From NCBI GenBank assembly GCA_012515515.1, contig JAAYYE010000009.1, forward strand, positions 1 through 33,817: a stretch of DNA of 33,817 nt. Reading direction: 5' to 3'. Positions 1 through 30,702 of the stretch are shown here, one piece after another. The stretch is from Minisyncoccota bacterium. Its GTDB lineage: Bacteria > Patescibacteriota > Microgenomatia > UBA1400 > PJMF01. The position numbers and the translations under genes were made by a program. The notes below the pieces were generated by a model that worked only from the letters and a program-made list of their open reading frames with translations, ran no database searches and was not told where the DNA came from. Each line of letters starts with the position of its first letter. The first letter of the stretch is position 1.

Positions 1-92
1 TATTAAATCTAATAAAATGCTGAAATATCAATCTAAAATATTATTAAATCTAATAAAATGCTGAAATATCAATCTAAAATATTATTAAATCT
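1..92. repeat. Perfect 41-bp tandem repeat (2 full copies plus 10 bp) overlapping the start codon of the first CDS
   Basis: Bases 1-41 and 42-82 are identical (tattaaatctaataaaatgctgaaatatcaatctaaaatat), and 83-92 repeat tattaaatct. It may extend beyond the window edge. Confidence 0.95.
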
Positions 93-1044
93 TTTTATTT
101 TACTGTGTTTTTTAGCAATTGGTATAAAAGATGTTCGGGCAAGTAATGAGGTCCTGGGCATGCACATTTTGCAGCCAGAAGAACTCAAGCATGTGCGCAT
201 GATTTTTGAGGATGATGAGTGGCGCTATACCACTATTCCTCTAGCCACTAGCGATACGCAAAACTGGCAGCGTTGGCAAAAATTTTTTGATGAAGCTTAT
301 CGACTTAAATTGATTCCGATTATTCGTTTAGCAACCAGCTATGATAGCGAGCAACAGCATTGGACAATCCCCACGCGCAAGGAAATTGTTAATTTGGTTG
401 CTTTTTTATCAAGTTTAAATTGGCATCAAAAGGAAAAACTGGTAGTTGTTTTTAATGAAGTTAATCACGCTCAAGAATGGGGTGGTAGAATTGATCCGCT
501 AGCTTACACGCAGGTTTTAAAATTTACTAGTAATTGGTTGCGCAGCGAGGGTTTAAATTATAAGGTTTTGCCAGCAGCACTTGATTTAGCCACAGCTAAT
601 ATTTTTCCAACTATGGAAGCTTTTAGTTATTTAGAAACAATGCTCCGCGTTGATCCAGAGATTTTTACTTATATTGATTATTGGAATTCTCACTCTTATC
701 CAAATCCAAACTTTTCAGCTTCACCCAAGACTAATGGGCAAAATTCTTTAAGAGGTTTTATTTATGAATTAAATTTTTTAAAAAACAAAACGGGTTTAGA
801 TTTTCAAACATTTATTACTGAAACTGGCTGGAAATCAAGCTATATGATTAATTTTTATTTAAGCGATTATTATGCCTATGCGCTCAAAAATATTTGGAGT
901 GATGAACGAGTTGTGGCAGTTACCCCTTTTGTGTTAAAAGGCGATCCAGGACCTTTTGCCCAGTTTGGTTTTGTGGATGCTAGTGATTTACCCACTATTC
1001 AAGCTAGTGCACTAAAAAAAGCTTTAAAAAAAATATCGCCTTGA
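58..1044 (+). CDS. Secreted or membrane-anchored glycoside hydrolase, clan GH-A (TIM barrel); family unresolved
   Basis: N-terminal hydrophobic signal; FNEVNH (acid/base NE motif), SHSYP and FITETGW (nucleophile) in the order typical of clan GH-A enzymes. Confidence 0.7.
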   Translation: MLKYQSKILLNLFILLCFLAIGIKDVRASNEVLGMHILQPEELKHVRMIFEDDEWRYTTIPLATSDTQNWQRWQKFFDEAYRLKLIPIIRLATSYDSEQQHWTIPTRKEIVNLVAFLSSLNWHQKEKLVVVFNEVNHAQEWGGRIDPLAYTQVLKFTSNWLRSEGLNYKVLPAALDLATANIFPTMEAFSYLETMLRVDPEIFTYIDYWNSHSYPNPNFSASPKTNGQNSLRGFIYELNFLKNKTGLDFQTFITETGWKSSYMINFYLSDYYAYALKNIWSDERVVAVTPFVLKGDPGPFAQFGFVDASDLPTIQASALKKALKKISP

Positions 1045-1078
1045 TTTGCCATGACAATCATTTAAAATGTTAACTAAG

Positions 1079-1113
1079 TTTGCTAAGCAGTAATTTGCTA
1101 AGTGGTAAATTGC
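1079..1113. repeat. Imperfect 15-bp tandem repeat upstream of tRNA-Gly
   Basis: tttgctaagcagtaa / tttgctaagtggtaa / attgc. Confidence 0.7.
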
Positions 1114-1126
1114 GCATTGGGCAAGC

Positions 1127-1197
1127 GCGGGTGTAGTACATCGGTAGTATATCTCCCTTCCAAGGAGAAGAGGCCAGTTCGATTCTGGTCACCCGCT
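1127..1197 (+). tRNA. tRNA-Gly (anticodon TCC), CCA not encoded
   Basis: Acceptor GCGGGTG/CACCCGC, anticodon arm TCTCC-CTTCCAA-GGAGA, T-loop GTTCGATT, discriminator T. Confidence 0.95.
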
Positions 1198-1229
1198 CAC
1201 TTTCTTCCCTTCTCACCCGCTCATTTTCT
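1189..1229. repeat. Direct repeat (24-bp period) of the tRNA-Gly 3' end
   Basis: tcacccgctcactttct (1189-1205) vs tcacccgctcattttct (1213-1229), 16/17 identical. Confidence 0.85.
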
Positions 1230-1267
1230 CTTGATTACTAATAGGGTTTTCTGCTTTAATGTAAGCA

Positions 1268-2233
1268 ATGTCTAATTTTGCGCTATTTTTTATTGCTTTG
1301 TTTTTATTGTGGCTGGGGGCAGAACTAGTCACGCGGGCAGCCATCAAAATTGCCAAGTCGCTAGCCATGTCAGAGGGTTTTATTGGTCTCACTATCGTGG
1401 CAATTGGGACAAGTTTTCCAGAAATTATTATTGCGGTCACTGGGGCAATTCGCCAATTAAATGGCATCGATTCTAGTCAAATCGTGATAGGTAATGTCAT
1501 TGGTTCCAGTATGGCTAATTTAGCCTTAATTTTAGGCATTGTGGGTTTGTTAAAAGTGATTAAGCTGCAAAAAACCGAATTATTATTGGATATGTTGATG
1601 TTGGTTATGTCGACTACAATCTTTTATTTTCTTGGTCAGGATGGCATCATCAATCAACAAGACGGCATATTATTAATTCTTTTTTATCTTGTTTATTTGC
1701 TCTTTTTAAATCGACAAAACTTAAAAAAACAGAGTTTACTTTGCAAAAAAAATAAAAAAATAAAGACAAAGAAAATTCAAAAAATTAATTATTTAAGTTT
1801 TTTCCAATTAATTTTAGGTTTAGTAATTTTATTTAAAGCCTCGCAAATGGTTTTAAGTCACGGGGTGTTAATCGCTGAAGTGTTGGGAGTTAATGAAATG
1901 CTGGTGGGTATTCTCTTGGTTGGTTTGGGTAGCAGCTTGCCGGAACTAATGGTGTCAATTACGGCCATGAGGAAGGGATCAACCGCCCTGTCTTTGAATA
2001 ATCTAATTGGCAGTAATATCTTGAATGTTTTCTTAGCCTTGGGGCTAAGTGGCACTATTACTAGTTGGGAAATTAATAGGCAATTGGTGCTGTTTGATGT
2101 GCCCTACTTGCTATTTACGACGATTATAGCGGTGCTCTTTTTATTGAGCAAAAACAAATTTGAGCGCAAAGAATCAATATTAATGGTTGCTCTCTATGCA
2201 ATATATATCATCTTAAAGCTCTCTGGCTTTTAA
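1268..2233 (+). CDS. Calcium/sodium antiporter (CaCA superfamily, YrbG-like)
   Basis: About 10 hydrophobic segments in two halves, with alpha-repeat motifs GTSFPE and GSSLPE...NLIGSNILN. Confidence 0.92.
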   Translation: MSNFALFFIALFLLWLGAELVTRAAIKIAKSLAMSEGFIGLTIVAIGTSFPEIIIAVTGAIRQLNGIDSSQIVIGNVIGSSMANLALILGIVGLLKVIKLQKTELLLDMLMLVMSTTIFYFLGQDGIINQQDGILLILFYLVYLLFLNRQNLKKQSLLCKKNKKIKTKKIQKINYLSFFQLILGLVILFKASQMVLSHGVLIAEVLGVNEMLVGILLVGLGSSLPELMVSITAMRKGSTALSLNNLIGSNILNVFLALGLSGTITSWEINRQLVLFDVPYLLFTTIIAVLFLLSKNKFERKESILMVALYAIYIILKLSGF

Positions 2234-2265: not shown

Positions 2266-3372
2266 GTGAAAAAAAATATGGAAAAAAATTGGCAAAGAAT
2301 GCGTCATGATGAGTTTTTTGCTCAACGCTTATTGTTGCGTGAACAAGTCATTAAAGCCATCAGAAAATTTTTTGATCAGCAGCAGTTTCTTGAAGTGGAA
2401 ACACCGCTCTTGGTTAAAGCACCTGGTTCAGAGCCTTATTTAGAAGTCTTTAGAACGGAATTAAAAGACGAACACGATCATAGTCAGCCCGCTTATTTAC
2501 TCACTAGCCCAGAATATAGTATGAAAAAACTATTAACTGCTGGTCTAGATAAAATTTATCAGATTTGCAAAAGTTTTCGTAATCAAGAAAGTTTTGGGCA
2601 GAATCATAATCCCGAATTTACCATCTTAGAATGGTATCGGGCTTCAGCCGACTATCAAGATATTATGTTGGATCTTGCGCAACTCATACTTTTTATTCAT
2701 GAAGAATTAAAAAAATATTACAGCACAAAAACAGACGATTTTGCACAAAGCATGCTGGCAAGATTGGGAGATAAGCAACTTGAATATTTGGGTAAAAATT
2801 ATAATTTACAATTACCCTATCAAAGGCTAACTGTGGCAGAAGTTTTTGCCAAATATTTAAATATTCAAGAAGAAGAATTGCTGAATAGAGACGCTCTTTA
2901 TCAAGTGGCAAAGAAGTTAAATTATCAATTAGCTAGCGATGCGAGCTGGGACGATTTGTTTTATCAACTATTTTTAAATGAAATTGAGCCACAATTGGCT
3001 CAATTAGATCATCCGGTAATTATTTGTGACTATCCTCTATCTCAAGCTGCTTTGGCTAAAAGAAAAACCAGCAATCCTCAATTTGCTGAGCGCTTTGAGC
3101 TTTATTTAGCTGGCTTAGAATTGGGCAACGCTTTTAGTGAATTGACAGATCATCAAGAACAAGAACAGCGCATTAAATCCGAGTTGTCATTGAGAAAAGA
3201 ATTAAATAAAATTGCTTATGAGCTAGATCAAGATTTTATTAAAGCCCTGGAAGTAGGCATGCCAGAATCTGGAGGAATTGCGGTGGGTGTTGATAGAATT
3301 ATTATGTTGTTTGCTGGAGTGAGCGACATCAATGATATTTTATTTTTTCCAGCTAGTGAGCTGTTTGCTTAA
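2266..3372 (+). CDS. epmA: EF-P lysine aminoacylase EpmA (GenX/PoxA)
   Basis: Class II LysRS-like catalytic domain without the anticodon-binding domain: EVETP, YLLTSPEYSMKKLL, HNPEFTILEWY, ERFELY..GLELGNAFSEL, GIAVGVDR; directly upstream of efp. Start is GTG 2266 or ATG 2278. Confidence 0.93.
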   Translation: MKKNMEKNWQRMRHDEFFAQRLLLREQVIKAIRKFFDQQQFLEVETPLLVKAPGSEPYLEVFRTELKDEHDHSQPAYLLTSPEYSMKKLLTAGLDKIYQICKSFRNQESFGQNHNPEFTILEWYRASADYQDIMLDLAQLILFIHEELKKYYSTKTDDFAQSMLARLGDKQLEYLGKNYNLQLPYQRLTVAEVFAKYLNIQEEELLNRDALYQVAKKLNYQLASDASWDDLFYQLFLNEIEPQLAQLDHPVIICDYPLSQAALAKRKTSNPQFAERFELYLAGLELGNAFSELTDHQEQEQRIKSELSLRKELNKIAYELDQDFIKALEVGMPESGGIAVGVDRIIMLFAGVSDINDILFFPASELFA

Positions 3373-3392
3373 AGGCTGTTTGATAAATTAAC

Positions 3393-3421
3393 TTGACTAG
3401 GCAAACAAATTAAGTTTTAAT
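3393..3421 (+). promoter_or_regulatory. Putative sigma70 promoter for efp
   Basis: TTGACT (3393-3398), 17-bp spacer, TTTAAT (3416-3421). Confidence 0.5.
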
Positions 3422-3440
3422 AAGCCTTGAATATTAACTT

Positions 3441-4007
3441 ATGTCAATAATTAAAGCAGGTAACATCAAAAAAGGCAGTTATATTCTGTATCGGAATGCA
3501 CCTCATTATGTGTCCTATGTGAAATTTGTCTCTCCTGGCAAGGGTTCAGCTTTTTCTCGAGTGAAAATGCGTGATATGCGTTCTGGAGCCAATGTTGAGT
3601 TTACTTTTAAATCTCACGACAATGTTGAAGAGCTAGATGTATCGAGCAAAGAAATGCAATTTTTATATAAAGCTGATGATGAGGTTATTTTTATGGATCC
3701 AGTGAGCTACGAACAAATACCTGTTCCTGCTAAACTACTTGAAGGCCAAGTGGAAATGTTAACCGCTGATATTAAAGTCTATGTGCTTTTTTATGAAGAG
3801 AAAGCTTTGGGAGTGAGTTTGCCTCCAAAAGTTAAACTGAAAGTGGCTAAGGCAGACAATGCTGTGACTGGTGATCGGCAAACTGCTGGAAAAAAACCAG
3901 TGATTATGGAAACGGGTTTAGTTGTTCAAGCACCCTTGTTTATTAAGGAGGGCGATGTATTATCAATTGATACTACTACTGGTGATTATGTTTCTAGGGT
4001 CAATTAA
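3441..4007 (+). CDS. efp: Elongation factor P
   Basis: PGKG loop (FVSPGKGSAF), MQFLY, ETGLVVQAPLFI, DTTTGDYVSR. Confidence 0.97.
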   Translation: MSIIKAGNIKKGSYILYRNAPHYVSYVKFVSPGKGSAFSRVKMRDMRSGANVEFTFKSHDNVEELDVSSKEMQFLYKADDEVIFMDPVSYEQIPVPAKLLEGQVEMLTADIKVYVLFYEEKALGVSLPPKVKLKVAKADNAVTGDRQTAGKKPVIMETGLVVQAPLFIKEGDVLSIDTTTGDYVSRVN

Positions 4008-5002: not shown

Positions 5003-6886
5003 ATGCCCACAGAAACACGTCTTCTCTATATTCTTAGCGATTTAGCTTATATTGCTAAGTTAAATCCTACAAAAAAAGCCCATGAGTTTGTTATTAGCGA
5101 TTTTCACCAGTTAAATGGTCAATTCTTAGATGAAAATAGTTTGATTGAAAAAAACATTAAGAAGTTGGTTGATAAACTCGAACCTGGGACATATCAATTA
5201 ATTTTACCCGATTTCCTTTTTACCAATACCATGGTGAATGTGAAGGTAAAGACTGAGGAAGAAGTTAAAGATTATTTAAATGACCATCTATTAGTTGATT
5301 TAAAAATTGATAAAGAAGACTTTTATTTACACACGACTGTCTTAAGTAATTATGGCGGATCATTTAAGGTGCAGCTAACTGCTTTAGAAAAAGGCATTGT
5401 TTTGCCATTGGTGAAAGCTCTCAAAAATAATAAAGACCTCAAAATCACTGCGATTGCTCCGCTGAGCTTTAGTGTTAAGTCCCTAGTCAGTTTAGAGCCC
5501 TCAGTTTCAATTTTGCAAATTAACCGAGAATTATATTTGGCTCAACACTACATCGGTGTTGACCAATGTTTTAACACCTCAATAGATCATGCTAATGACT
5601 TTGCTGACACTGTCAAAACACTCAAAGGTGTTGAGCCAAGCATCCAAACCCTATATCTTTTGTCTGACGCTTTAGTCGATCAAAAAATTAAAGAAGCTCT
5701 GAGTGATACTCTCCCTGTTCAGCAACTAGCTGAACCAACCCCGGAGGGAGAAAAAATACCTTCTTATATCAAAAAAATTATTGAAGCGGGAGCAAAAACT
5801 TTTTCTATTCCTGATTATTTATTGCCACAGTTTGAAATTGATAAAAACTATGATAAAGAATTAGACACTAAACAATTAGAAGAAGCTGATGCAGAAGACG
5901 AAACAAGTGCGGCTGCAATTAGCAAGCCAGCAGTAATTGGCGAAGAAAATATTGTGCAAGAAAGTGACGATCAAGCGTCTGAAAGTAGTGAAGAAACAGA
6001 TGCAGAAAAAGAGCCAGGCGAGCAGGAGCCAGCAGTAGATGCAGTTTTGCCAAAAGATTTAGAAAGTGAAACGCTACCTGCTCCCAAAAAGCTTGATTTA
6101 CAGGAAATTAATCAGGTTGAGACTCAGAAAGATTTGGGGCAGGAGACAAAACCTGAACCAGAGGCAAAAGAGCTTAATCAAGAAATAAAAGAAGAAACTC
6201 AAAAAGAGTCGCCTAAAAATGTCAAAAATAAGCAGGAAGCGAGTGGGTCTACCGCTGGTGAAATTGATTTGGCACAGTTTGCCAATTTAGCTATTGATCC
6301 ATCTGTCTTGAATAAAAAAGATGCACAAAAATTCAATAAGGAGCCAAGTATGTCAGACAGCAAACCGGTCATTAAGAATACTACTACTGAAGGAAAAAGC
6401 GTGCTCAAAATGATTGGCATTGCTTTTTTTAGCCTCGTTTTAACTGCTGCTATTGGCATTGGTCTTGGTTATGGGATTTTACAATTAACTAATAAGCAGC
6501 CAGCAGATGTCAAACCTAGTGATGAAACCAGCAACCCAATAGAAGAAGTAACGCCAACGCCTGAACCAGAAAAGGTCACAATTAATAAAGAAGACTATAA
6601 ACTATTAGTGGTCAATGCGACTACTAAGGCAGGCTACGCTGGTGAGATAGCCAATGCCCTAGAAGAAGCAGGTTTTCCAGATGTAGCAGCCAAAAATGCT
6701 CGTGGCAAATATGAAGAGGGCAATTATTTATTGTTCAGTGATTTAAACGAAGCAACAGAGGCCACTCATCAGGCGCTACTCAAAGAAGTCAGCGAGCTGA
6801 CTAAGCTTGACTGGGAACTATCAGATAAAATTGCTGGAGAAGACAGCGAAGGTGCTTTTCAAGCTGTCTTAGTTTTAGCCAAGTAG
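5003..6886 (+). CDS. Bitopic membrane protein: PilM-like N-terminal domain, acidic linker, one TM helix, LytR_C-like C-terminal domain
   Basis: C-terminal LLVVNATTKAGYAGEIANALEEAGF..KNA..AVLVLAK matches the LytR_C pattern; TM IGIAFFSLVLTAAIGIGLGYGIL; Glu/Pro-rich linker. The PilM-like call is by eye only. Confidence 0.65.
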   Translation: MPTETRLLYILSDLAYIAKLNPTKKAHEFVISDFHQLNGQFLDENSLIEKNIKKLVDKLEPGTYQLILPDFLFTNTMVNVKVKTEEEVKDYLNDHLLVDLKIDKEDFYLHTTVLSNYGGSFKVQLTALEKGIVLPLVKALKNNKDLKITAIAPLSFSVKSLVSLEPSVSILQINRELYLAQHYIGVDQCFNTSIDHANDFADTVKTLKGVEPSIQTLYLLSDALVDQKIKEALSDTLPVQQLAEPTPEGEKIPSYIKKIIEAGAKTFSIPDYLLPQFEIDKNYDKELDTKQLEEADAEDETSAAAISKPAVIGEENIVQESDDQASESSEETDAEKEPGEQEPAVDAVLPKDLESETLPAPKKLDLQEINQVETQKDLGQETKPEPEAKELNQEIKEETQKESPKNVKNKQEASGSTAGEIDLAQFANLAIDPSVLNKKDAQKFNKEPSMSDSKPVIKNTTTEGKSVLKMIGIAFFSLVLTAAIGIGLGYGILQLTNKQPADVKPSDETSNPIEEVTPTPEPEKVTINKEDYKLLVVNATTKAGYAGEIANALEEAGFPDVAAKNARGKYEEGNYLLFSDLNEATEATHQALLKEVSELTKLDWELSDKIAGEDSEGAFQAVLVLAK

Positions 6887-6951
6887 AACGACTTCAAAAT
6901 ACGTTTAGGGACTTGCAAAGAAGAAAAAAATCTTTATACTTATCGCCTGTT

Positions 6952-7437
6952 ATGTCGAAACAAATCAAAGATAAAAACGATCAAATTATTTTAACCGAAG
7001 ATGGTCTGGCTGATTTGACAACTGAACTTAAAGATCTTAAAGAAGTGAAGATGCCAAAAGCAGTGGCCAGAATTGCCAATGCTCGTGACCAGGGTGATTT
7101 GAGCGAAAATTCTGATTATCATTCAGCTCTAGATGAGCAAGCGATGCTTAATGCCCGAATAGATCAAATTGAAGATATTATTGATCGAGCTAAAGTGGTC
7201 AAGGAACAATCTGGTCATTTAGTGGCTTTGGGTTCAAAAGTAAAAGTCCATTTAATCAATACTAATCAAGAATTAAGCTATTCGCTGGTTGGTCAATATG
7301 CATCTAGCCTTGAAGAAGGTAAAATTTCCATAGAATCTCCAGTGGGTAAATCCCTTTTAAATAAACAAAAGGGCGATCGGGTTGTAGTTGAAACGCCGGC
7401 CGGGAAAATGGAATATTTAATTATCAGCGTAAGTTAA
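6952..7437 (+). CDS. greA: Transcription elongation factor GreA
   Basis: LTEDG, ARDQGDLSENSDYHSA, GKISIESPVGKSLL, VETPAG. ATG 6952 preferred over TTG 6913. Confidence 0.96.
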   Translation: MSKQIKDKNDQIILTEDGLADLTTELKDLKEVKMPKAVARIANARDQGDLSENSDYHSALDEQAMLNARIDQIEDIIDRAKVVKEQSGHLVALGSKVKVHLINTNQELSYSLVGQYASSLEEGKISIESPVGKSLLNKQKGDRVVVETPAGKMEYLIISVS

Positions 7438-7456
7438 AAAAATAATTAAGCATGTC

Positions 7457-7480
7457 AGCCCCGCCAAGTGCGGGGTTTTT
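7457..7480 (+). terminator. Rho-independent terminator after greA
   Basis: Stem GCCCCGC/GCGGGGT with loop CAAGT, followed by a T run. Confidence 0.8.
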
Positions 7481-7524
7481 AGTCTAGATAAAGCCAGATA
7501 TTCAAGCTAAAATATAAAGGATTT

Positions 7525-9228
7525 ATGAATAAAAAGAAGCCCATTGAGCAGTCAGCTCATAGTTTAGATACCTTAGTTGAAGAAATTTTACTTTGGCAAA
7601 AAAAACAAGCTATTCAAGACTTGCATGTTGATGATATGAAAACTCCATCTGGGAGAGTGCACACGGGTGCTTTGCGAGGGGTCTTGTTACACGATGTCAT
7701 TGCTAAAATCATTCAAGAACATTTGGACAAGGAGTCTCAAGAAAATCGCGCTCAAAAAGTGCTCAGCACTTATGTCTTTAATGATATGGATCCGATGGAC
7801 GGTTTACCTCTCTATTTAAATAAAGAGGAATATCTTCAACATATGGGTAAACCTTTATATTTAATCCCTCCTCCAGCTTTGGATAAATCTGGAATTGATT
7901 TCTCTCAAATCAATGAACAAGAAAGAATGGAGCTAGAGGCTGCCAAAAATTTTGCAGAATTTTATGCCACTGATTTCATTCATACTTTTCGCGCCCTAGG
8001 TTGTAGTCAAGAAATAGTGTGGAGTCATCACTTGTATGAGAGTGGCCAAATGGATGAAGTCATTCGCTTTTCATTAGATCATGTCGATTTATTCAAGAAA
8101 ATTTATAAAGAGGTGGCTGATTATGATTTGCCAGAAAACTGGTATCCATTTCAAGTTATTTGCCCAGTTTGTGGCAAAATTGGCACTACTTTAGTGACTG
8201 ATTGGGATGGCCAAGAAGTTGGTTTTGTTTGTCAAGAACACGCGGTTAAATGGGCTGAGGGTTGCGGTCATCAGGGCAAAATTAGCCCCTTTTCAGGCAA
8301 TGGTAAGTTGCTGTGGAAAGTTGATTGGCCAGCTCATTGGAGAACTTTAGGTGTGAATATTGAGGGTGCCGGCAAAGACCACACTAGTGCTGGTGGATCA
8401 AGAGACATGGCTAATGCCATTTGTCGAGAAGTTTTTAAAACTCAAGTGCCCTTTGACATCCCTTACGAGTGGATACTGTTGCGAGGGAGTAAAATGAGTT
8501 CTAGTAAAGGAGTTGGCACTTCAGCTCGTGAATTTACTGCTCTTTTTCCTCCAAGTGTTGGACGTTTTTTATTTGTTAACAAAGATCACAATCAGGTGAT
8601 AGATTTTGATCCGGCCAGCATGGCAATTCCTGATTTATTTGACGATTATGATCGAGCTGCGCGAATTTATTGGGGACAAGAAGAAGGAGATCAGCGTTTA
8701 GCGCGTGCTTTTGTTTTGTCACAGCCAGATAATATAATTCCCCAAGCTCATTTTTTAACTCGTTTTCGTGATTTAGCTCAGTGGATGCAATATCCTGAAA
8801 AAGATGTATTTGTGGAAGCTAGTAAAGTTAAAGGGGCTGAATTAACTGCTTTAGAAAAAGAAGTCATCACTGAGCGACTACATTATGCTGAATTATGGAT
8901 TAGCAAGTATGCTCCTGAAGAATATCAGTGGCGAGCTAAAAAAACCATGCCTCCGCAAGCTCAAGAACTGAGCGAAGAACAAATAATGTTTTTAGAAGAA
9001 ATAAGTAAAATGATCGCTGGTCAATCTTGGCAGGCCCAAGAATTGCAACAGGCTATTTTTGATTTGGCTAAGCAAGGTCTTGGCACCGGGCCTGCTTTTA
9101 AATCAATCTATCTGGCTTTTTTAGGTAAAAAATCTGGTCCAAGAGCGGCGTGGTTTTTATTAAACATTGATCAACAATTACTTCAGGATAGAATAAAAGA
9201 ACTAAAAGACTTACATAAAAAAAATTAA
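7525..9228 (+). CDS. lysS: Lysine--tRNA ligase, class I
   Basis: TPSGRVHTGALRG (HIGH-like), CPVCGK Zn motif, GKLLWKVDWPAHW, EGAGKDH, KMSSSKG, C-terminal GPR. Confidence 0.95.
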   Translation: MNKKKPIEQSAHSLDTLVEEILLWQKKQAIQDLHVDDMKTPSGRVHTGALRGVLLHDVIAKIIQEHLDKESQENRAQKVLSTYVFNDMDPMDGLPLYLNKEEYLQHMGKPLYLIPPPALDKSGIDFSQINEQERMELEAAKNFAEFYATDFIHTFRALGCSQEIVWSHHLYESGQMDEVIRFSLDHVDLFKKIYKEVADYDLPENWYPFQVICPVCGKIGTTLVTDWDGQEVGFVCQEHAVKWAEGCGHQGKISPFSGNGKLLWKVDWPAHWRTLGVNIEGAGKDHTSAGGSRDMANAICREVFKTQVPFDIPYEWILLRGSKMSSSKGVGTSAREFTALFPPSVGRFLFVNKDHNQVIDFDPASMAIPDLFDDYDRAARIYWGQEEGDQRLARAFVLSQPDNIIPQAHFLTRFRDLAQWMQYPEKDVFVEASKVKGAELTALEKEVITERLHYAELWISKYAPEEYQWRAKKTMPPQAQELSEEQIMFLEEISKMIAGQSWQAQELQQAIFDLAKQGLGTGPAFKSIYLAFLGKKSGPRAAWFLLNIDQQLLQDRIKELKDLHKKN

Positions 9229-9237
9229 TAAGGAATT

Positions 9238-10491: not shown

Positions 10492-10520
10492 TATAGTAAT
10501 TTTTTAAGATTGTAGAAAAT

Positions 10521-13592: not shown

Positions 13593-13597
13593 ACAAT

Positions 13598-16387: not shown

Positions 16388-16390
16388 TAT

Positions 16391-19855: not shown

Positions 19856-19877
19856 ATCTAGACTTAGTATATCTCAT

Positions 19878-22585: not shown

Positions 22586-22608
22586 TATTTTTCCGATTTA
22601 ATTGTTTT

Positions 22609-22689
22609 GCCGTTTAATGTTTATTTGTCCTCGCCGTTTAATGTTTACTTGTCCTCGCCGTTTAATATTTACTTATCTTCGCTGTTTAA
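22609..22689. repeat. About 3.4 tandem 24-bp copies of the gatC 3' end filling the gatC-gatA spacer
   Basis: Minus strand: ttaaacagcgaagataagtaaata / ttaaacggcgaggacaagtaaaca / ttaaacggcgaggacaaataaaca / ttaaacggc. Confidence 0.95.
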
Positions 22690-22992
22690 GACCTGAGGAA
22701 CAAGAAAATAACCGTCTCGTTGTTCCCTAGCGTTAGCCAGTGCTTCTTCTTGGGTAAAACTGAGGCTTTCATCGACAATGTCTTCTCTAGTAATATTTTT
22801 AAAGCCAGTGACCTGATGGGTGCCTGCTAGCTCGGCAACATCGGCTGTTTTCAATTGATCAACTACAGTTAAAGTTTGAGCAAAATCTTTAGCCAGCTGC
22901 TGACTTTCACTTTCACTAATAGGAATATTAGCTAGTTGAGCTATATGTTTAACCTGGTCTTTGCTAACAATTTTTTTTGACACAATAGGCAT
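22669..22992 (-). CDS. gatC: Amidotransferase subunit C
   Basis: VKHIAQLANI, NITRED, EALANA..DGYFLVPQV; lies upstream of gatAB. ATG 22992 preferred. Confidence 0.93.
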   Translation of the reverse strand: MPIVSKKIVSKDQVKHIAQLANIPISESESQQLAKDFAQTLTVVDQLKTADVAELAGTHQVTGFKNITREDIVDESLSFTQEEALANAREQRDGYFLVPQVLNSEDK

Positions 22993-23034
22993 TAGTTTAG
23001 CAGAATTTAGCAATTTTTTTAGAAGTAATTCAGC

Positions 23035-23955
23035 TTATTTAGTAGTGATGGCTCTGAGAGCCTGAACTCGCTCAGCCACAGGTGGATGAGTTTGAAATAA
23101 ATTTTTGAAAGTAGCAACTCCGCCGCGACTATTTTTTAGAGGGTCACTAATATATAAATGAGCGGTGGCTTTATTGGCTGCTTCTAAAGGCTCTTGATCT
23201 TGACTAATTTTAATTAAGGCCCTAGCTAGTCCCTCAGGATTCTTGGTCATGGCAGCGGCGCTAGCATCAGCTAAAAACTCATAGCGCCTGGAAAGAGCTA
23301 GTTTCATCAGTTTGCTAATAATAGGTGCCAACAAGGCCATGACTATGGCGACAAAAAACATAATCATATCTAACTGGCTGCGTTCTCCGTCTTTTTTATT
23401 ATTACTTCGCATTGGACCATACATTGAACCGCGCATGACCCAGTCACCCAACAAAGCAATTAAGCCAACCAGGACAGAAACAAGTGACATTAATAAAATG
23501 TCATAATTTTTAATATGACTAATCTCATGAGCAATGACTCCCTCAAGTTCGCTGCGGTTTAATTTAGCCAATAAACCGGTGGTGGCACAAACCACGGCGT
23601 GGCTAGGATTTCGGCCAGTAGCAAAGGCATTCATCGCGCTGTCCTCGATGACATAAAGTTTGGGCATGGGCAATCTTTGACTGTTTACAATATTTTCGGT
23701 AATAGTATAGAAGTCAAAGTGTTCCTTACGATTAGCTGCTTTGGCTCCAGAGATGGTCAGAACGATCCTATCGGAAAAAAAATATGAAAAGAAAGTGCTC
23801 ATTCCAGCAACAATAAAAGCTGTGCCAACTATAGAAAGAGGGTAATCAAAAGCACGCGCAATAACATAGCTAGCCCCAAGCACAAATAAGACAAAACCAA
23901 GCATAACTGCTACAGATCGAGCTTTATTTTTAGCAACTAACTGATAATGAGTCAT
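23035..23955 (-). CDS. htpX: Zinc metalloprotease HtpX (M48)
   Basis: NAFATGRNP, ELEGVIAHEISHI (HExxH), SRRYEFLADA, FQTHPP; TM segments. Confidence 0.95.
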   Translation of the reverse strand: MTHYQLVAKNKARSVAVMLGFVLFVLGASYVIARAFDYPLSIVGTAFIVAGMSTFFSYFFSDRIVLTISGAKAANRKEHFDFYTITENIVNSQRLPMPKLYVIEDSAMNAFATGRNPSHAVVCATTGLLAKLNRSELEGVIAHEISHIKNYDILLMSLVSVLVGLIALLGDWVMRGSMYGPMRSNNKKDGERSQLDMIMFFVAIVMALLAPIISKLMKLALSRRYEFLADASAAAMTKNPEGLARALIKISQDQEPLEAANKATAHLYISDPLKNSRGGVATFKNLFQTHPPVAERVQALRAITTK

Positions 23956-24006
23956 AAATAGACGATCCTCTTAATTGAATATTTTTTGTAATTTTATTGC
24001 TCGGAA

Positions 24007-24585
24007 TTAAAGATCCACTTTTGGAGTCTTCATTTCCTCTTCTGTAACCACAACATGTTCGCCAGTCATTGGAGTTTCTAAACCTTTTTCAGCTTTGAAT
24101 CCAAATAAATTAGCTACAATGTTTGATGGAAACACCACTAATTTTTCGTTGTAAGATTGTGATAAATCTATCACGCTTCTGCGAGCGTAACTTAATTTAT
24201 CAGCGGTGTCGGTGAGCTCATCCATAAACTTTTTAATAGCTTCATTGGCTTTTAGTTCTGGATTACTTTCAAGCACCACCTGAATTTGCGGAATAACTTT
24301 TTGAATGTCATCAATGGCTTGATTAATGTCCTTACTATTGCCACTTTGTTCAGCCTTAATTGTGGATTTACGGGCATCTGTTAACATTTGATAAATACCC
24401 TGCTCGTGTTTCAGTTGACCCTTAACCGTGCTTTCAAGGCTTGGAATTAAACCAGCTTGACGTTTCAATTGGTTACCAATTTCCTGAATACTGGCTTGAA
24501 TTTGTGTTTTAAGACGTTGCAGACCATTAAAAACGCTCATAACATAGAGAGCGATAAGGATGATGGGAATTAAGATATAAAGCAT
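24007..24585 (-). CDS. lemA: LemA family protein
   Basis: N-terminal TM, QLKRQAGLIPSL, ESNPELKAN, FPSNIVANLFGF; SD GAAAGGAA before ATG 24585; usual lemA-htpX pairing. Confidence 0.93.
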   Translation of the reverse strand: MLYILIPIILIALYVMSVFNGLQRLKTQIQASIQEIGNQLKRQAGLIPSLESTVKGQLKHEQGIYQMLTDARKSTIKAEQSGNSKDINQAIDDIQKVIPQIQVVLESNPELKANEAIKKFMDELTDTADKLSYARRSVIDLSQSYNEKLVVFPSNIVANLFGFKAEKGLETPMTGEHVVVTEEEMKTPKVDL

Positions 24586-24655
24586 TAAATTCCTTTCACT
24601 GTTAACTATTATATATTTCATTATATACGATTAATTTACTTTTTTCGCTTGTTTC

Positions 24656-24684
24656 TTGCAGTTTTGTGATTTTCCTTTTATAAT
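24656..24684 (+). promoter_or_regulatory. Sigma70 promoter for the tRNA cluster
   Basis: TTGCAG (24656-24661), 17-bp spacer, TATAAT (24679-24684). Confidence 0.7.
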
Positions 24685-24702
24685 CCAGGTGCAAATTAAA
24701 AA

Positions 24703-24779
24703 GGCCCTGTGGTGTAGTTGGTTAACATATCTCCCTGTCACGGAGAAGATCGCCGGTTCGAGCCCGGTCGGGGTCGCCA
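24703..24779 (+). tRNA. tRNA-Asp (anticodon GTC), CCA encoded
   Basis: Acceptor GGCCCTG/CGGGGTC, anticodon arm TCTCC-CTGTCAC-GGAGA, GTTCGAGC, ends GCCA. Confidence 0.96.
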
Positions 24780-24835
24780 AATAAATATAGAAATTTCACC
24801 CATCAAAATATTAAAAATGTTAAAATAAGCTAACA

Positions 24836-24906
24836 GCGACCGTAGTTCAGCGGTAGAATGCGAGCTTCCCAAGCTTGAGGTGAGGGTTCGACTCCCTTCG
24901 GTCGCT
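24836..24906 (+). tRNA. tRNA-Gly (anticodon CCC), CCA not encoded
   Basis: Acceptor GCGACCG/CGGTCGC, anticodon arm CGAGC-TTCCCAA-GCTTG, GTTCGACT. Confidence 0.95.
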
Positions 24907-24922
24907 CGCTAAAACAAGAACA

Positions 24923-24996
24923 GCCAAAGTAGCTCAGCTGGCTAGAGCAGCGGTATCGTAAACCGCAGGTCGTGGGTTCGAATCCCACCTTTGGCT
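24923..24996 (+). tRNA. tRNA-Thr (anticodon CGT), CCA not encoded
   Basis: Acceptor GCCAAAG/CTTTGGC, anticodon arm GCGGT-ATCGTAA-ACCGC, GTTCGAAT. Confidence 0.95.
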
Positions 24997-25046
24997 CATA
25001 AATCGACTTTATGATATGATTAATTTAGTTTAATTTATAATTTAAT

Positions 25047-25811
25047 ATGGCAAGTTCAAATCGATATTCTTCTGTTTATAAAACTAGTTCTCGAAGCAAT
25101 CGAGGCAATTCTCGTTTATTAAAAAAACAAGAAAAAGAGATGCGTAAACAAACCTTTTTCTTCATTTTTTTAGCGATAGTGTTGTTATTACTGTTTCTTT
25201 TTGTAATTATGCCGAATTTAATTAAATTGGTTTTTAATTTTATCGATAATGATTCTGGCACAGATATTAATAATGATTTGCCTCCACAGGCACCGGTTTT
25301 ATTTGAGGCGCCTCCAGAAGCAACTTTTAGTGCGCAATTAAAATTGCAAGGCTATGCTGACCCAGATTCAAGAGTAGTTTTTATCTTAAATGGCCAGCAG
25401 GTTGAAGAAGAACTAATTGGCGAAAAAGGAGAATTCGACAAGCAATTGCAATTAGAAAAAGGTGATAATCAATTAACCTTATATGCGGTGAATGAATTAG
25501 GCACGGAATCCTTGCAAAGCAAGACCTATCAACTTGTCTACGATGATGAGCCGCCAGTCATTACCATAACAGAGCCAAAAGCAGACAGCACTATAGAGTT
25601 AAAACGGAATCGGACCACCAGTGTAGTTGGCGAAACAGAGCCATCTTCTAGAGTTTATCTTAATGATTTGTTGATTTTGGCTGATGAAAATGGTCAGTTT
25701 ACTAGCACTTACTATCTAGAGGAAGGCGACAATCTTTTACGATTTGTGGCTGTGGATCGCGCTGGTAATCAAAGCGAATTAGAGATTAAAGTGAAATTTC
25801 TCAATAACTAA
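25047..25811 (+). CDS. Membrane-anchored protein with two bacterial Ig-like domains
   Basis: Basic N-tail, one TM, then two beta-rich repeats (G.ADPDSRV..NG...GEF...L.KGDN.L...AV..LG and GETEPSSRV.LN...GQF...L.EGDN.L...AVDRAGN). Confidence 0.75.
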   Translation: MASSNRYSSVYKTSSRSNRGNSRLLKKQEKEMRKQTFFFIFLAIVLLLLFLFVIMPNLIKLVFNFIDNDSGTDINNDLPPQAPVLFEAPPEATFSAQLKLQGYADPDSRVVFILNGQQVEEELIGEKGEFDKQLQLEKGDNQLTLYAVNELGTESLQSKTYQLVYDDEPPVITITEPKADSTIELKRNRTTSVVGETEPSSRVYLNDLLILADENGQFTSTYYLEEGDNLLRFVAVDRAGNQSELEIKVKFLNN

Positions 25812-25829
25812 AGATAAATTAAAGATAAA
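25806..25829. repeat. 11-bp tandem duplication spanning both stops at a convergent junction
   Basis: aactaaagata / aattaaagata / aa. Confidence 0.7.
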
Positions 25830-26937
25830 AAGCCCAAAAAGTTAAGCTTGTCATAGCTTGAGTCATATTATTATTGAATAAGCTGTGGACAAGCAGAGCA
25901 ATTAATAGACTGATTTGCCAATGATGTTTATGCTCCCACTCTTGTTTAAATTCTCTGATTAGTAAAAGTAAAATCAAAGAAGTACCAAAAATTCCAAAAC
26001 CGTTATATAGAAAAATTAGAAAATTATCAGCAAAGCGGGCGTGACTAATACTGCCCTCTTGATTAATTTGATATTGGGGAGAAAAAGGTCCTTGGCCAAA
26101 GAAAATAGCTGGACCCCGATTGCTGCTTAAATATTGTTGAGCACTAGTCATTCTTGCCGAAATTGAACTAACTCGTGTTAAATTTACCCCTTCTCCGCCA
26201 CTTTTTTTGGGTAAAAAGGGGATGAAAACAATGAATAAAAGTAAGGAGAAACTAATAAATAATTTAGTGATTTTTTGACTATTGATTATTAAATAGATGC
26301 CAGCCAGCAGCAAACTCAAATAACTTGCTCTTGAGTAAGTTAATGCTAGGCCGACTAAAAACAATAAGGCTAAGAAAATATTCTTTTTATCAAGATTTTT
26401 TTGCTTAAAATAATATAAACAATTAAACGCTAGAATCAATCCAGTGAAATTAGGATCAAGCAGTGTGGAAGCGAGTCGATAAAAATGATCATCATAACCT
26501 AAATGATAAAGACTAGTTAAATCTGGTAAAAGAAAATACTGCAACAAGCCCAGAATTAAAATCAAGAAGGAGGCAGACAAAAAGACATTGAGATTTTTTT
26601 TCTTAGTAAAGTTTTGCTTTAAGAGCAAAATAAATAAAAAATAGGCCACAGCTCGAGCCATATATAAAAAACTAGTCAATTGGAAGCGATTTTGATAAAT
26701 TGCGTAGCTAATTGCTAAAAAAACATTAACAATTAGTAAGAAAAGTATTTTTTTATTAATTTTATTAATTTTTTTTAACTTTTTAATAATATTTTTTAAA
26801 CTATTAAAATTAAATAATAGGTAGGCAATTAGTAAAAAATCGTGTAAATAAACAGCTATTGTTTCTGTCAGATGAATTTTACCCAACTCTCCCCCAGCAA
26901 GAAATAATAAAAGACTAATTAAGAAAATATTTTTCAT
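25819..26937 (-). CDS. O-antigen ligase / Wzy_C family membrane protein
   Basis: Polytopic; RLASTLLDPNFTG, LTYSRASYL, SISAR...IFFGQG, HSLFNN. Confidence 0.8.
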   Translation of the reverse strand: MKNIFLISLLLFLAGGELGKIHLTETIAVYLHDFLLIAYLLFNFNSLKNIIKKLKKINKINKKILFLLIVNVFLAISYAIYQNRFQLTSFLYMARAVAYFLFILLLKQNFTKKKNLNVFLSASFLILILGLLQYFLLPDLTSLYHLGYDDHFYRLASTLLDPNFTGLILAFNCLYYFKQKNLDKKNIFLALLFLVGLALTYSRASYLSLLLAGIYLIINSQKITKLFISFSLLLFIVFIPFLPKKSGGEGVNLTRVSSISARMTSAQQYLSSNRGPAIFFGQGPFSPQYQINQEGSISHARFADNFLIFLYNGFGIFGTSLILLLLIREFKQEWEHKHHWQISLLIALLVHSLFNNNMTQAMTSLTFWAFYL

Positions 26938-28920: not shown

Positions 28921-28980
28921 AGCTTAATTATAAAGCAATCTTTTCCACTTGCCAGTTGCTAAGTGGCGGCGTTAAAATAG

Positions 28981-29577
28981 ATGTTTATGACAAAAGTTTT
29001 GGGAAAAATTGCTGGTGGTTTTTTAGACCTCGTAGAAACGGTGGCTATTTCCTTATCGATTTTTTTGGTAGTTTATCTAGTGATCATGCAGCCACATCAA
29101 GTAAATGGTCAATCAATGGTGCCCAATTTTCAACATGGCGAACATGTGATGACCGATAAAATATCTTATAAATTTCGGGAACCGAGACGCGGTGAAGTAG
29201 TGGTTTTTCATGCTCCGCCCGCAGCCGAGTGTGTTGAAGGCACCGGTTGTGATTTTATTAAACGAATTATTGCCCTACCAGGCGATCGGGTGGCAGTTCG
29301 AGATAATGCCATTTGGGTTAATGGTCAAAAATTAATTGAATCATACATCCCTGCTAATTTTGAAATCTCTCCAGGGAGAGCGACCCTCAATGAAGAAATT
29401 TATTTGGGTGCCGACGAATATTTTGTTTCTGGTGACAATCGTCCCCATTCTAGTGATTCCCGATCTTGGGGAGCAATTAAAAAAAGTGATATTGTTGGTC
29501 GAGTTTTCTTGCGCTATTGGCCTTTAAACGAGATTTCCTTAATTGAAAAAGTTGAATATCTGACGAATTTTAATTAA
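28981..29577 (+). CDS. lepB: Signal peptidase I
   Basis: GQSMVPNF (catalytic Ser), RGEVVVF, DFIKRIIALPGD (catalytic Lys), GDNRPHSSDSRSWG. The true start may be ATG 28987. Confidence 0.96.
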   Translation: MFMTKVLGKIAGGFLDLVETVAISLSIFLVVYLVIMQPHQVNGQSMVPNFQHGEHVMTDKISYKFREPRRGEVVVFHAPPAAECVEGTGCDFIKRIIALPGDRVAVRDNAIWVNGQKLIESYIPANFEISPGRATLNEEIYLGADEYFVSGDNRPHSSDSRSWGAIKKSDIVGRVFLRYWPLNEISLIEKVEYLTNFN

Positions 29578-29673
29578 ATTTTATTTCTTGCTCATCTTTC
29601 ATCTCATAATTGATTATAATAGTTTTATATTACCCTTGAGATTTTTCTTAAATAACAAGTACAATAGGCAGTA

Positions 29674-30660
29674 ATGACGAATAATCAAAGATTAGTAAAA
29701 GCTAAATTTCCTGATTTGGACTGGTCTTTTAATTATCCTTTAGCGGAATCAAGTTATTTTAAACTGGGGGGCTTAGCAGAAATTTATTATAAAGTTAAAG
29801 ATCAGCTACTGCTCAAAAAAATCCTAGTCTTTTGTGAGCAAGAACGGATCCCTTGGAAAATTGTCGGTGGTTTAAGTAATTTAGTCATAGCAGATGCGGG
29901 AGTGAGTGGCTTAGTTTTACAAATCGCTGTTAGAGATTTTCAAGTGCTTAGCGATCAAGAAGATGCAGTAGTTTTTAGAGCAGCAACGGGCATAAAAACC
30001 AGTCAGCTGGTTAGCAAGGCAGTTAATCTTGGCGGAACTGGTTTGGAGGGTTTTATTGGCGTTCCAGGTACTTTGGGAGGAGCTATTTACAATAATGCTC
30101 ATTATCTCAAGGCGTTGATTGGCGATTATGTAGAAAGTGTTGTTGCGTTTCACGTGAAACATAATAAAGAAATTATCTTTTCACGTGAAATGTGCAAGTT
30201 TGCTTATGAACACTCGGTGTTTCAAGAGGATCCACAGCTGGTCATTTTAGCTGCAACTTTTTCTTTACGCAAAGATCAGCCAGACGTTATTAAAGAAAAG
30301 TTACTCCAAGCTCAAGAACATCGACAACAGACGCAGCCCTTACATCTGCCCAGTTCTGGTTGTATTTTTCGCAATCCTCCCAACACCGATGAGTTGCGAC
30401 AACTTTTTCCACAGTTCGCTCAAAGGGAGTTTATTCCTGCAGGCTTCTTAATTGATCAAGCCGGGCTGAAAAATCAACAAGTGGGAGCCATTGTGGTGAG
30501 TGACAAACACGCTGCCTTTTTGGTCAATATGAGTGAAGAACTGCAATTACCCGCTAAAGCTCAGGATGTTAAAAAACTAATTGCGCAAATTCAGCTAGCA
30601 GTAAAAAAACAATTTAAAGTAGAATTAAAAGAAGAAATATTTTATCTTGGTCAAGATTAA
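29674..30660 (+). CDS. murB: UDP-N-acetylenolpyruvoylglucosamine reductase
   Basis: FKLGGLA, VGGLSNLV, GLEGFIGVPGTLGGAI.NNA, QP..PSSGCIFRNP, AGFLIDQAGLK, VSDKHAAFLVN, L.EEI. Confidence 0.93.
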   Translation: MTNNQRLVKAKFPDLDWSFNYPLAESSYFKLGGLAEIYYKVKDQLLLKKILVFCEQERIPWKIVGGLSNLVIADAGVSGLVLQIAVRDFQVLSDQEDAVVFRAATGIKTSQLVSKAVNLGGTGLEGFIGVPGTLGGAIYNNAHYLKALIGDYVESVVAFHVKHNKEIIFSREMCKFAYEHSVFQEDPQLVILAATFSLRKDQPDVIKEKLLQAQEHRQQTQPLHLPSSGCIFRNPPNTDELRQLFPQFAQREFIPAGFLIDQAGLKNQQVGAIVVSDKHAAFLVNMSEELQLPAKAQDVKKLIAQIQLAVKKQFKVELKEEIFYLGQD

Positions 30661-30702
30661 ATTAATCATGATTAAAAAATTAATAATACAAAGAAAGCAA
30701 AT

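Follow-up and report, generated by a model that had tools for sequence, protein, structure and literature searches.

Short tandem duplications over gene ends in a compact Minisyncoccota genome

Repeats and gene junctions in the window

The window, by which we mean the whole stretch of 33,817 nucleotides analysed here, starts at a contig end in a Minisyncoccota genome (G000) of 0.8 Mb that is 93% coding. It carries a tRNA-Gly gene together with epmA-like, serS, mutM, transketolase, gatC, gatA, htpX-like, murB and murA genes, a gene for Pol III alpha at 16391-19855 and genes for an Ig-domain protein and an O-antigen-ligase-like protein, and the gene names given in the original prediction agree with Pfam domain matches. 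The repeats are collected in Table 1. The genome was compared with G006, the closest relative of G000, with the further relatives G005, G001 and G017, and at the window arrays with metagenome contigs of samples X1, X2 and X4; sample X3 lies outside this array comparison, since none of its listed pieces spans an array.

Table 1. Repeats in the window and their positions
Feature	Positions	Strand	Detail
41-bp unit, at least 2.2 copies, 100% identical	1-92	+	reaches contig end
15-bp x2.3 intergenic array, first CDS/tRNA-Gly spacer	1079-1113		score 49, borderline
tRNA-Gly(TCC) 3' repeat	1188-1235	+	last 11 nt of tRNA and 6 further nt found again 24 bp downstream
epmA-like stop, 15-bp repeat	3357-3386	+	11/15 matches, 83rd percentile among all stops
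serS stop, 16-bp repeat	10481-10512	+	12/16 matches, 86th percentile among all stops
21-bp x2.9 array on mutM/transketolase stops	14463-14523		unit holds both convergent stops
17-bp x2.4 array overlapping the 24-bp gatC array	22584-22622	-	extends to gatA start
24-bp x3.4 array on gatC stop	22609-22689	-	each copy holds the last gatC codons and TAA
htpX-like (M48 peptidase) stop, 20-bp repeat	23009-23048	-	14/20 matches, 77th percentile among all stops
11-bp x1.9 repeat on Ig-domain protein/O-antigen-ligase-like stops	25803-25829		repeat itself called at 25809-25829
In-frame 21-bp x1.9 array within O-antigen-ligase-like gene	26760-26799	-	one of 72 in-frame interior arrays
murB stop/murA start, 15-bp repeat	30646-30675	+	12/15 matches, 92nd percentile, borderline

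The 41-bp unit contains the ATG of the first CDS, with a decoy ATG at 17 and the true start at 58. Because this array lies on a contig end and another contig, C18, terminates in the same 92 bp, its copy number is a lower bound; the corresponding site of G006 has a single copy with a 10-bp direct repeat on its flanks. The 21-bp unit holds both stops of a convergent pair, i.e., the TAA of mutM (14474-14476) and the TAG of the transketolase C-part (14515-14517, minus strand). Among same-genus genomes, this junction is a 4-bp stop overlap in three and a gap of 5-6 bp in three more, and the 38-bp spacer of G000 was made by the 21-bp array, present in three copies in G000 and four in G006, from the ancestral 4-bp overlap. 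The 11-bp duplication also spans convergent stops, those of the Ig-domain protein (TAA, 25809-25811) and of the O-antigen-ligase-like protein (25819-25821, minus strand). The 11 bp are missing from G006 and G005, which both show a TTAA stop overlap there, and this overlap is the ancestral state of the junction. Together with a third site elsewhere in G000, three convergent 4-bp stop overlaps have been opened by duplication and are retained by outgroups, and the resulting spacer measures 7-38 bp (59 bp in G006). At the gatC stop, the 24-bp array has 3.4 copies in G000, 2.4 in G006 and about one in G005, and a contig of X2 is shorter by exactly 24 bp at 22609, so that the array has one copy fewer there and is polymorphic. 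The bases of the borderline intergenic array at 1079-1113 are missing from G005 in the alignment.

Four of the strong cases put forward in the original prediction, at the start of the first CDS and at the mutM/transketolase, gatC and Ig-domain protein/ligase stops, were all recovered as arrays, and the relatives and other samples support those at the junctions by unduplicated states and differences in copy number. These 41-, 21-, 24- and 11-bp arrays are real. It had also been proposed that deletion of the extra copies at three sites restores either a 4-bp overlap of stops or a TAATG junction; the outgroups bear this out for the stop overlaps at the two window sites, while TAATG was not found and the gatC-gatA spacer of G005 is 25 nt long. 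The weaker cases fared differently. The epmA, serS and htpX repeats are in the range of chance, because they fall between the 77th and 86th percentile of all stop codons; the alignment with G006 contains no indel at the epmA-like and serS stops, and at the htpX-like stop it shows a length difference of 1 nt and nothing larger. The murB case is borderline, and G006 has an additional 15 bp at the murB/murA junction.

The repeat at the 3' end of tRNA-Gly, described before as a 24-bp duplication of a gene terminus, is present, but the relatives point to an insertion site instead of a terminal slip. Its copies are just 13 nt apart in G000. In G006 they are separated by 736 bp, and next comes a 9.6-kb insert that has a direct repeat of about 45 nt at its flanks; G005 carries a different insert of 440 bp at this site. 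Duplication of a tRNA 3' end occurs at the attachment sites of integrative elements, and the att-like arrangement is found here as well: the repeat copies the last nucleotides of the tRNA, and in a relative inserted DNA lies between and after the copies. The differences from such elements are the close spacing of the G000 copies and the lack of an integrase-family match by Pfam among the six proteins of the G006 insert, where one AAA_5 and one protein with LRV repeats were matched. The repeat thus looks like an insertion-site (att-like) repeat rather than a simple slip, with an origin separate from that of the other arrays.

Array counts in the genome and its relatives

With cut-offs of period at least 9 and score at least 50, G000 contains 146 tandem arrays, and five local shuffles give 11-24. 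The arrays consist of head-to-tail copies of locus-unique sequence with periods of 10-42 bp and no fixed duplication length. Of 1485 pairs of units, only 24 have a 10-mer in common, including one pair formed by a single array that was seen at two contig ends; most of the remaining pairs have just 1-7 words in common, in several cases between A/T-rich units. The units are therefore mutually unrelated, as originally stated, and both a dispersed mobile repeat family and target-site duplication by transposons were rejected, given unrelated units and periods that vary. By place, 89 of 144 arrays lie inside genes, 32 contain a stop codon, 7 contain only a start codon and 16 are purely intergenic. 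The period is a multiple of three in 72 of the 89 interior arrays, and all 12 interior indels of tandem type are in frame. Among the stop arrays this holds for only 11 of 32, and in-frame back-up stops were discarded as the purpose of the duplications on this count.

The distribution was compared with a null of uniform duplications that are retained unless they lie strictly inside a gene. Stop-containing arrays exceed this expectation (32 observed vs about 11 of 55; p about 1e-7 to 1e-9), purely intergenic arrays fall below it (16 vs about 34), and starts are not enriched (7+6 vs 9.3+2.6). The stop and intergenic counts reject the simplest filter by selection, in which a unit is neutral unless it lies strictly within a gene. 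Arrays with only a stop outnumber those with only a start (26 vs 7; p=0.0013), and the stop excess persists in gaps of up to 100 bp taken alone (20+4 observed vs 8.0+2.6 expected). The enrichment of stops beyond random duplication filtered by ORF integrity, a check suggested with the original prediction, was thus found. A simulation control puts the bias of the pipeline at 1.2-fold at most. Errors in the 5' boundaries of genes were dismissed as a cause of the stop excess, which is left in place when boundaries are shifted 12-30 nt upstream; so were start miscalls, since the excess stays after a heuristic re-call that moved 174 of 718 starts; and so was the opportunity for microhomology, since the share of stops to be expected falls from 0.207 to 0.171 once placements are weighted by pre-existing direct repeats of 3-7 nt. 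The youngest arrays and the indels between G000 and G006 comprise 9 stop, 1 start and 6 intergenic cases of 16, and because they are equally biased to stops, slower decay of constrained copies is insufficient as an explanation. In a point statistic, arrays score at 18 of 701 stops and 3 of 701 starts; the comparison of stops with mid-spacer points (6 of 355; p=0.51) is not a clean one, because four of the six scoring points touch a stop and the fifth falls in the gatC array.

The stop lies in the gene-proximal copy at 31 of 38 stop boundaries, and a stop triplet is repeated one period later at 32 of 38. No fixed offset of the breakpoint from the stop codon was found, the ratio of overlap to period being spread over the unit (0.19-1.0), with a mean of 0.62 that is partly inflated by units with two stops. 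Of 11 young arrays with two copies, 8 have no more than 2 nt of microhomology at their flanks, which is little for slippage of the classical kind; at the site of the 42-bp array of contig C5 the microhomology is about 5 nt.

With respect to gene orientation, divergent junctions, which are free of stops, carry arrays in 5 of 96 cases and co-directional ones in 30 of 567. Convergent junctions are enriched 2.5-fold (13/99 vs 35/663 for all others; Fisher p=0.006), an observation that a selection filter does not predict. Arrays occur at 4-7% of junctions whose ancestral gaps range from overlapping to 100 bp and at about 13% above, so the frequency per junction is roughly flat up to 100 bp and does not scale with spacer length. 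Ancestrally overlapping junctions hold 10 arrays vs 1.0 expected, a count in which some overlaps may be start miscalls or over-subtracted copies. As 26 non-tandem indels of at least 9 bp are located in spacers, spacers tolerate changes in length. Against the proposal that intergenic DNA is generated by such duplications, arrays account for only 3.9% of the intergenic bases of G000.

The array density per 100 kb is 18.0 in G000, 16.5 in G006, 6.0 in G005 and 4.9 in G017. The burst is restricted to the species of G000 and its closest relative G006, and it is lineage-wide and not site-specific. Of the arrays comparable between these two genomes, 8 of 25 differ by exactly one period, and 14 of 15 comparable junctions are shorter in G005. 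Convergent spacers have a median length of 17 bp in G000, 11 in G006, 5.5 in G005 and 2 in G017, and 12 of 98 convergent junctions of G000 still overlap by 4 bp. A search for six families in G000, G006, G005, G001 and G017 revealed no difference in gene content that tracks the burst: all five genomes have the 5'-3' exonuclease N domain, DHHA1 and the UvrD helicase, and MutS_V, Exonuc_VII_L and RNase_T were found in none of them.

Possible origins of the stop-codon excess

We favour, with a probability of roughly 0.58, the reading that frequent slippage-type duplications of 10-42 bp are filtered by selection and persist chiefly at sites where the unit extends across the end of a functional element. 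In the lineage of G000 and G006, duplications would arise unusually often or be retained unusually well, probably through copying errors of the slippage type. Every sequence element keeps one intact copy after a tandem duplication, except where the unit lies strictly inside it, and for this reason duplications would persist only where the unit spans an element end. The stop codon would be the commonest such boundary in a genome that is 93% coding with spacers of about 20-30 bp. Duplications in gene interiors would survive only if in frame, while those in start regions, which create decoy starts, and those inside promoters, leaders and terminators are presumably purged. New spacer DNA made of copies of gene ends would be a by-product, and convergent genes with a former 4-bp stop overlap would become separated. 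The stop excess would be explained without targeting by a stricter filter, in which almost all of the spacer DNA has a function; this assumes that the majority of spacer bases belong to elements that exceed the unit in length.

The rather doubtful alternative that in this lineage the 3' ends of genes are genuine hot spots of mutation by short templated duplication, with selection merely trimming the outcome, draws on the 2-3 fold stop excess over every ORF-integrity null that we built, which the small bias of the pipeline does not cover, on the predominance of stops over starts in both the array counts and the point statistic, and on the enrichment of convergent and of ancestrally overlapping junctions. 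Stalling or backtracking of RNA polymerase after the ribosome leaves at the stop, followed by collision with the replisome, and torsional stress between convergent genes are possible causes. Against it, breakpoints are not anchored to the stop, stop-free divergent junctions are as rich in arrays as co-directional ones, and the last 60 nt of genes have about as many in-frame arrays as the first 60 nt (11 vs 9); moreover, mutM, gatC, transketolase and the ligase-like gene do not appear obviously highly expressed, and part of the apparent ancestral overlaps may stem from start miscalls or over-subtraction of copies. The terminus-focused process of the original prediction holds for the excess at stops and fails for starts, breakpoints and the comparison of divergent with co-directional junctions. 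We consider it unlikely that the stop-codon zone, above all where convergent stops overlap, is a hot spot and the chief way in which overlapping genes become separated and spacers arise in streamlined genomes, for which collisions of the replisome with RNA polymerase lacking its trailing ribosome are a possible cause. It is improbable that the duplications were selected because they part overlapping or abutting genes and relieve the constraint of shared codons, clashes of convergent transcription or forced translational coupling. The three opened overlaps, the over-representation of tight junctions against the null and the longer median convergent spacer of G000 agree with selected separation, but some convergent junctions retain the overlap, arrays also occur at wide junctions, and the rise to 3-4 copies that differ among samples looks like neutral churn with no fixed optimum.

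Two further explanations bear on the copies themselves. Allele replacement or illegitimate recombination with a relative, which would leave the old gene end beside the new one, had been offered as a source of the repeats and could account for the 5-25% difference among copies, as imported alleles might show. We regard it as very unlikely: several arrays are 100% identical, arrays attain 3-4 copies, steps of exactly one period separate G000 from G006, and in the one case examined, the 42-bp array of C5, the two G000 copies share four states that distinguish them from the single copy of G006 and differ from each other at seven positions, a pattern that agrees with a unit duplicated in place whose copies later diverged. 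Artefacts of assembly or strain mixture might be suspected from the 41-bp array, which sits on a contig break with its 92 bp on two contigs, but such an origin is extremely improbable for the arrays. A contig made by a second assembler, likely from the source run, has 0 differences over 6001-26000; contigs from X1, X2 and X4 also carry arrays, with the 21-, 24- and 11-bp arrays in both X2 and X4 and the 21-bp array there in the same copy number as in G000; G006 has diverged versions with different copy numbers; and the copies have diverged in most arrays.

Likeness to known repeat systems and meaning

Bacterial repeats of the VNTR or minisatellite type arise by local duplication and slipped-strand expansion, and their intergenic loci are used for strain typing. 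The arrays of G000 resemble them in locus-specific head-to-tail units, in copy numbers that differ among relatives and samples and in the in-frame periods inside genes; they differ in that many young loci, mostly of 2-4 copies, are gathered in 0.8 Mb and that most units hold the last codons of a gene and its stop. In Ehrlichia ruminantium, intergenic tandem repeats with actively variable copy number were reportedly described by Collins et al. in 2005, with units said to be about 150 bp long in a genome of low coding fraction. Common to both is a small genome in which one lineage has gathered many unstable intergenic repeats, whereas the units of G000 are shorter, its coding fraction is high and arrays make up a small share of its spacer DNA. 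The Borg elements of Methanoperedens, large extrachromosomal elements of archaea, have tandem direct repeats with many copies per array. They share with G000 a lineage-specific burst of perfect or nearly perfect tandem repeats that lie between genes as well as, in frame, inside them, but the arrays of G000 are on a bacterial chromosome and have 2-4 copies each. In animal mitochondrial genomes, intergenic spacers originate by tandem duplication and random loss, in which whole genes are duplicated and gene order changes. The likeness is a compact genome with spacers born as decaying copies of pieces of neighbouring genes; in G000, the units are only 10-42 bp long and gene order is unchanged.

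According to a preprint (bioRxiv 10.64898/2026.09.10.750558), CTAG, TTAA and CTAA are common short overlaps of convergent genes, and the ancestral junctions of G000 were exactly such 4-bp stop-stop overlaps. The text of the preprint does not contain the words 'duplication', 'tandem' or 'insertion', while G000 shows the loss of overlaps by duplication of the junction. Our literature search found no description of an excess of stop-straddling duplications in bacteria, which is not proof that none has been published.

The arrays are usable as strain markers, and they also cause contig breaks and misplaced calls of stops and starts in metagenome-assembled genomes. The three opened overlaps provide an outgroup-polarised picture of how a very compact genome gains spacers, in which the junction is duplicated and each gene keeps an intact end. 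As the ORF-integrity null under-predicts stop arrays 2-3 fold, either almost every base of the spacers is functional or the 3' ends of genes are fragile.

Tandem arrays of the window and their state in relatives

The strong arrays (short head-to-tail tandem repeats) of the original prediction, i.e., those at the contig start, between mutM and transketolase, at the end of gatC, and between the Ig-domain protein and the ligase, were all reported by Tandem Repeats Finder. The 21-bp unit includes the stop codons of both genes, TAA of mutM and TAG of transketolase, and the last gatC codons with their TAA are repeated in every 24-bp copy. The end of another contig of the source genome, C18 (G000:C18:23311-23402), is the same 92 bp as the start of the window contig C8, thus the two contigs abut, the assembly break is inside the 41-bp array, and its copy number is fixed only as at least 2.2.

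Coordinates of arrays and other features in the window
Feature	Position	Strand	Detail
Array, contig start	1-92		41 bp, at least 2.2 copies (contig end), 100% matches
Site downstream of tRNA-Gly	1127-1270		without the inserts of the relatives
efp and adjoining EpmA-like class II synthetase paralogue	2266-4007
Lysyl-tRNA synthetase	7525-9228		class I type (PF01921)
Array, mutM/transketolase	14463-14523		21 bp x2.9
Split transketolase, both ORFs	14515-16387	minus	8-nt overlap
Transketolase, pyrimidine-binding and C-terminal part	14515-15522	minus
Transketolase, N-terminal TPP-binding part	15515-16387	minus
Array	22584-22622		17 bp
Array, gatC	22609-22689		24 bp x3.4
Array, Ig-domain protein/ligase	25809-25829		11 bp x1.9
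murB/murA junction	30646-30700		extra 15 bp in closest relative, resembling the adjoining 15 bp

Comparison of the junctions with those of close relatives polarises the duplications. The mutM/transketolase array has 3 copies and a 38-bp spacer in the source genome and 4 copies and a 59-bp spacer in its closest relative G006 (~92% nucleotide identity); among same-genus genomes this junction is a 4-bp stop overlap in three (CTAG, TTAA, CTAA) and a 5-6 bp gap in three. The gatC array increases from ~1 copy in the same-genus genome G005 to 2.4 in G006 and 3.4 in the source genome, the 11-bp repeat is absent, with a TTAA stop overlap in its place, in both G006 and G005, and the 41-bp unit is present in G006 as a single copy flanked by a 10-bp direct repeat. 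Over 25 comparable arrays, the length in G006 was the same in 8, one period apart in 8 and different by other amounts in 9, and of 15 comparable junctions 14 were shorter in G005. In public sequencing runs, one contig of the likely source run is identical over 6001-26000, a wastewater run (X4) bridges the 21-bp, 24-bp and 11-bp arrays without gaps, and in a run from landfill (X2) the 21-bp and 11-bp arrays are likewise spanned without gaps and exactly 24 bp are missing at 22609; no array was spanned among the pieces listed for the sample X3. Because relatives carry other copy numbers and independent contigs carry the arrays, the strong arrays are genuine, arose recently and continue to change.

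The outcome was different for the weaker cases. The repeats at epmA (11/15 matches), serS (12/16) and htpX (14/20) fall within the range of chance, at the 77th-86th percentile over 701 scored stop codons, and their lengths do not differ from G006 by anything on the scale of an array, the difference at htpX being one base. The murB case is borderline, and duplication may be active at the murB/murA junction despite its weak repeat in the source genome. The TAATG junction that had been proposed was not found. The suggestion that duplication generates intergenic DNA holds at individual tight junctions, where three convergent 4-bp overlaps were seen opened by a duplication, and is not supported in general, with arrays making up 3.9% of intergenic bases in the source genome vs 0.5% in G017, a complete genome of the same family.

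Gene content and the tRNA-Gly insertion site

The source genome comprises 0.81 Mb in 26 contigs (C8 has 106,562 bp, the first 33,817 of which are the window) with ~37% G+C and a completeness score of 98%; 746 protein genes from an ORF-based caller and 45 tRNAs from ARAGORN together cover 93% of the DNA. The short contigs C2 and C13, and also C3, C15 and C22, have 42-64% G+C, may be rRNA pieces or contamination, and were left out of all counts. The predicted gene names were borne out by Pfam, which supports the EpmA-like synthetase paralogue, EF-P, SerS, SecA, MutM, the split transketolase, DnaE, GatCAB, an M48 peptidase, the Ig-domain protein, an O-antigen-ligase-like protein, MurB and MurA. 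Across the genome, a Shine-Dalgarno core could be recognised at normal spacing for only 134 of the 718 gene starts that were re-called, and translation initiation may depend little on such pairing.

The repeat at the tRNA-Gly 3' end, initially taken as one more terminus duplication, is set apart by the inserts of the relatives. In this region of G006 (G006:C4, ~9000-19500), the last 11 nt of the tRNA occur twice, 736 bp apart with an ORF in between, and a 9.6-kb insert, bounded by a ~45-nt direct repeat, comes after the second copy. The insert encodes a 655-aa AAA_5 protein, an LRV-repeat protein and two ~1000-aa proteins without Pfam hits, and none of its 6 proteins matched an integrase family in Pfam. 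G005 carries a different, unrelated 440-bp insert at the same place, and the source genome has neither. Thus, a variable insertion hot spot with att-like repeats lies downstream of tRNA-Gly(TCC).

Genome-wide burst and excess at stop codons

With a period of at least 9 and a score of at least 50, the genome holds 146 arrays vs 11-24 in five local shuffles; about one-third of arrays scoring 40-49 would be chance. The units are unrelated to one another and, as predicted, do not form a mobile repeat family. The 144 arrays on the 21 main contigs comprise 89 inside genes, 26 at a stop only, 6 at a stop and a start, 7 at a start only and 16 that are purely intergenic. The burst is also remodelling proteins by in-frame interior arrays, the period being a multiple of three in 72 of the 89 (e.g., 15 bp x9.7 at G000:C11:132462-132607), while only 11 of the 32 stop-containing arrays have an in-frame period. 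These 32 hold 38 stop boundaries, with the stop in the gene-proximal copy at 31 and a stop triplet again one period later at 32.

The same pipeline found 18.0 arrays per 100 kb in the source genome (800 kb; 51-55 outside gene interiors), 16.5 in G006 (466 kb; 28), 6.0 in G005 (300 kb; 5) and 4.9 in G017 (800 kb; 4, none at a stop), and the burst is therefore lineage-specific. None of six candidate slippage-suppressing families differed in presence or absence in a way that tracks the burst across these four genomes and the further relative G001. In these five genomes, whose completeness is 95-100%, MutS_V, Exonuc_VII_L and RNase_T (DnaQ-type exonuclease) had no match. The open frame that holds the 5'-3' exonuclease domain spans just ~316-324 aa, which suggests a stand-alone flap nuclease.

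Since a tandem duplication spares every element that does not strictly contain the unit, the ORF-integrity null was modelled on the genome with its arrays collapsed, where units as long as those observed were spread uniformly over all positions except those strictly within a gene. Out of 55, it expects 34.4 intergenic, 9.3 start, 2.6 both and 8.7 stop, vs 16, 7, 6 and 26 observed. Enrichment beyond this null was thus confirmed for stops (32 vs ~11) and not for starts. The stop excess was kept at gap cut-offs of 100, 150 and 250 bp and with a 6-nt minimum overlap (p 4e-3 to 6e-10), with gene 5' ends shifted 12-30 nt upstream, with refined start calls and under microhomology weighting. Uniform duplications put into G017 and passed through the whole pipeline were 37% stop-containing vs 32% expected, so the pipeline bias is at most ~1.2-fold. 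Indels of at least 9 bp between the source genome and G006 (n=98) point the same way, the 29 of tandem type being 13 interior, 9 stop, 6 intergenic and 1 start.

Origin of the excess

We favor, with a probability of roughly 0.6, a high input of short tandem duplications filtered by selection. The filter would have to be stricter than ORF integrity to account for stops being 2-3 fold in excess and spacers in deficit; promoters, leaders or terminators exceeding the unit in length would take up most spacer bases, and duplications in start regions would be costly. Such filtering is consistent with interior arrays being in frame and equally common near gene starts and ends, with breakpoints that are not anchored to the stop codon, with arrays per junction staying flat over ancestral gap sizes rather than scaling with spacer length, and with divergent junctions carrying arrays as often as co-directional ones. 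However, the stop bias is already there in the youngest arrays, spacers tolerate 26 non-tandem indels, arrays are enriched at convergent junctions (13/99 vs 35/663; p=0.006), and most young arrays lack flanking microhomology, all of which speak for a real mutational hot spot at gene 3' ends, an explanation we nevertheless consider unlikely. Selection for separating overlapping genes is more doubtful still. Allele replacement, raised in the original prediction, ranks low, as the copies have derived states in common in the single array studied for this, and so does an assembly artefact, as independent assemblies agree.

The arrays are VNTR-like local tandem duplications, a known kind, and resemble those of the repeat-rich lineages of Ehrlichia ruminantium and of Borg elements. 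Our literature searches turned up no paper that measures an excess at bacterial stop codons. What this lineage adds to the known kind is a quantified excess of arrays at stop codons.
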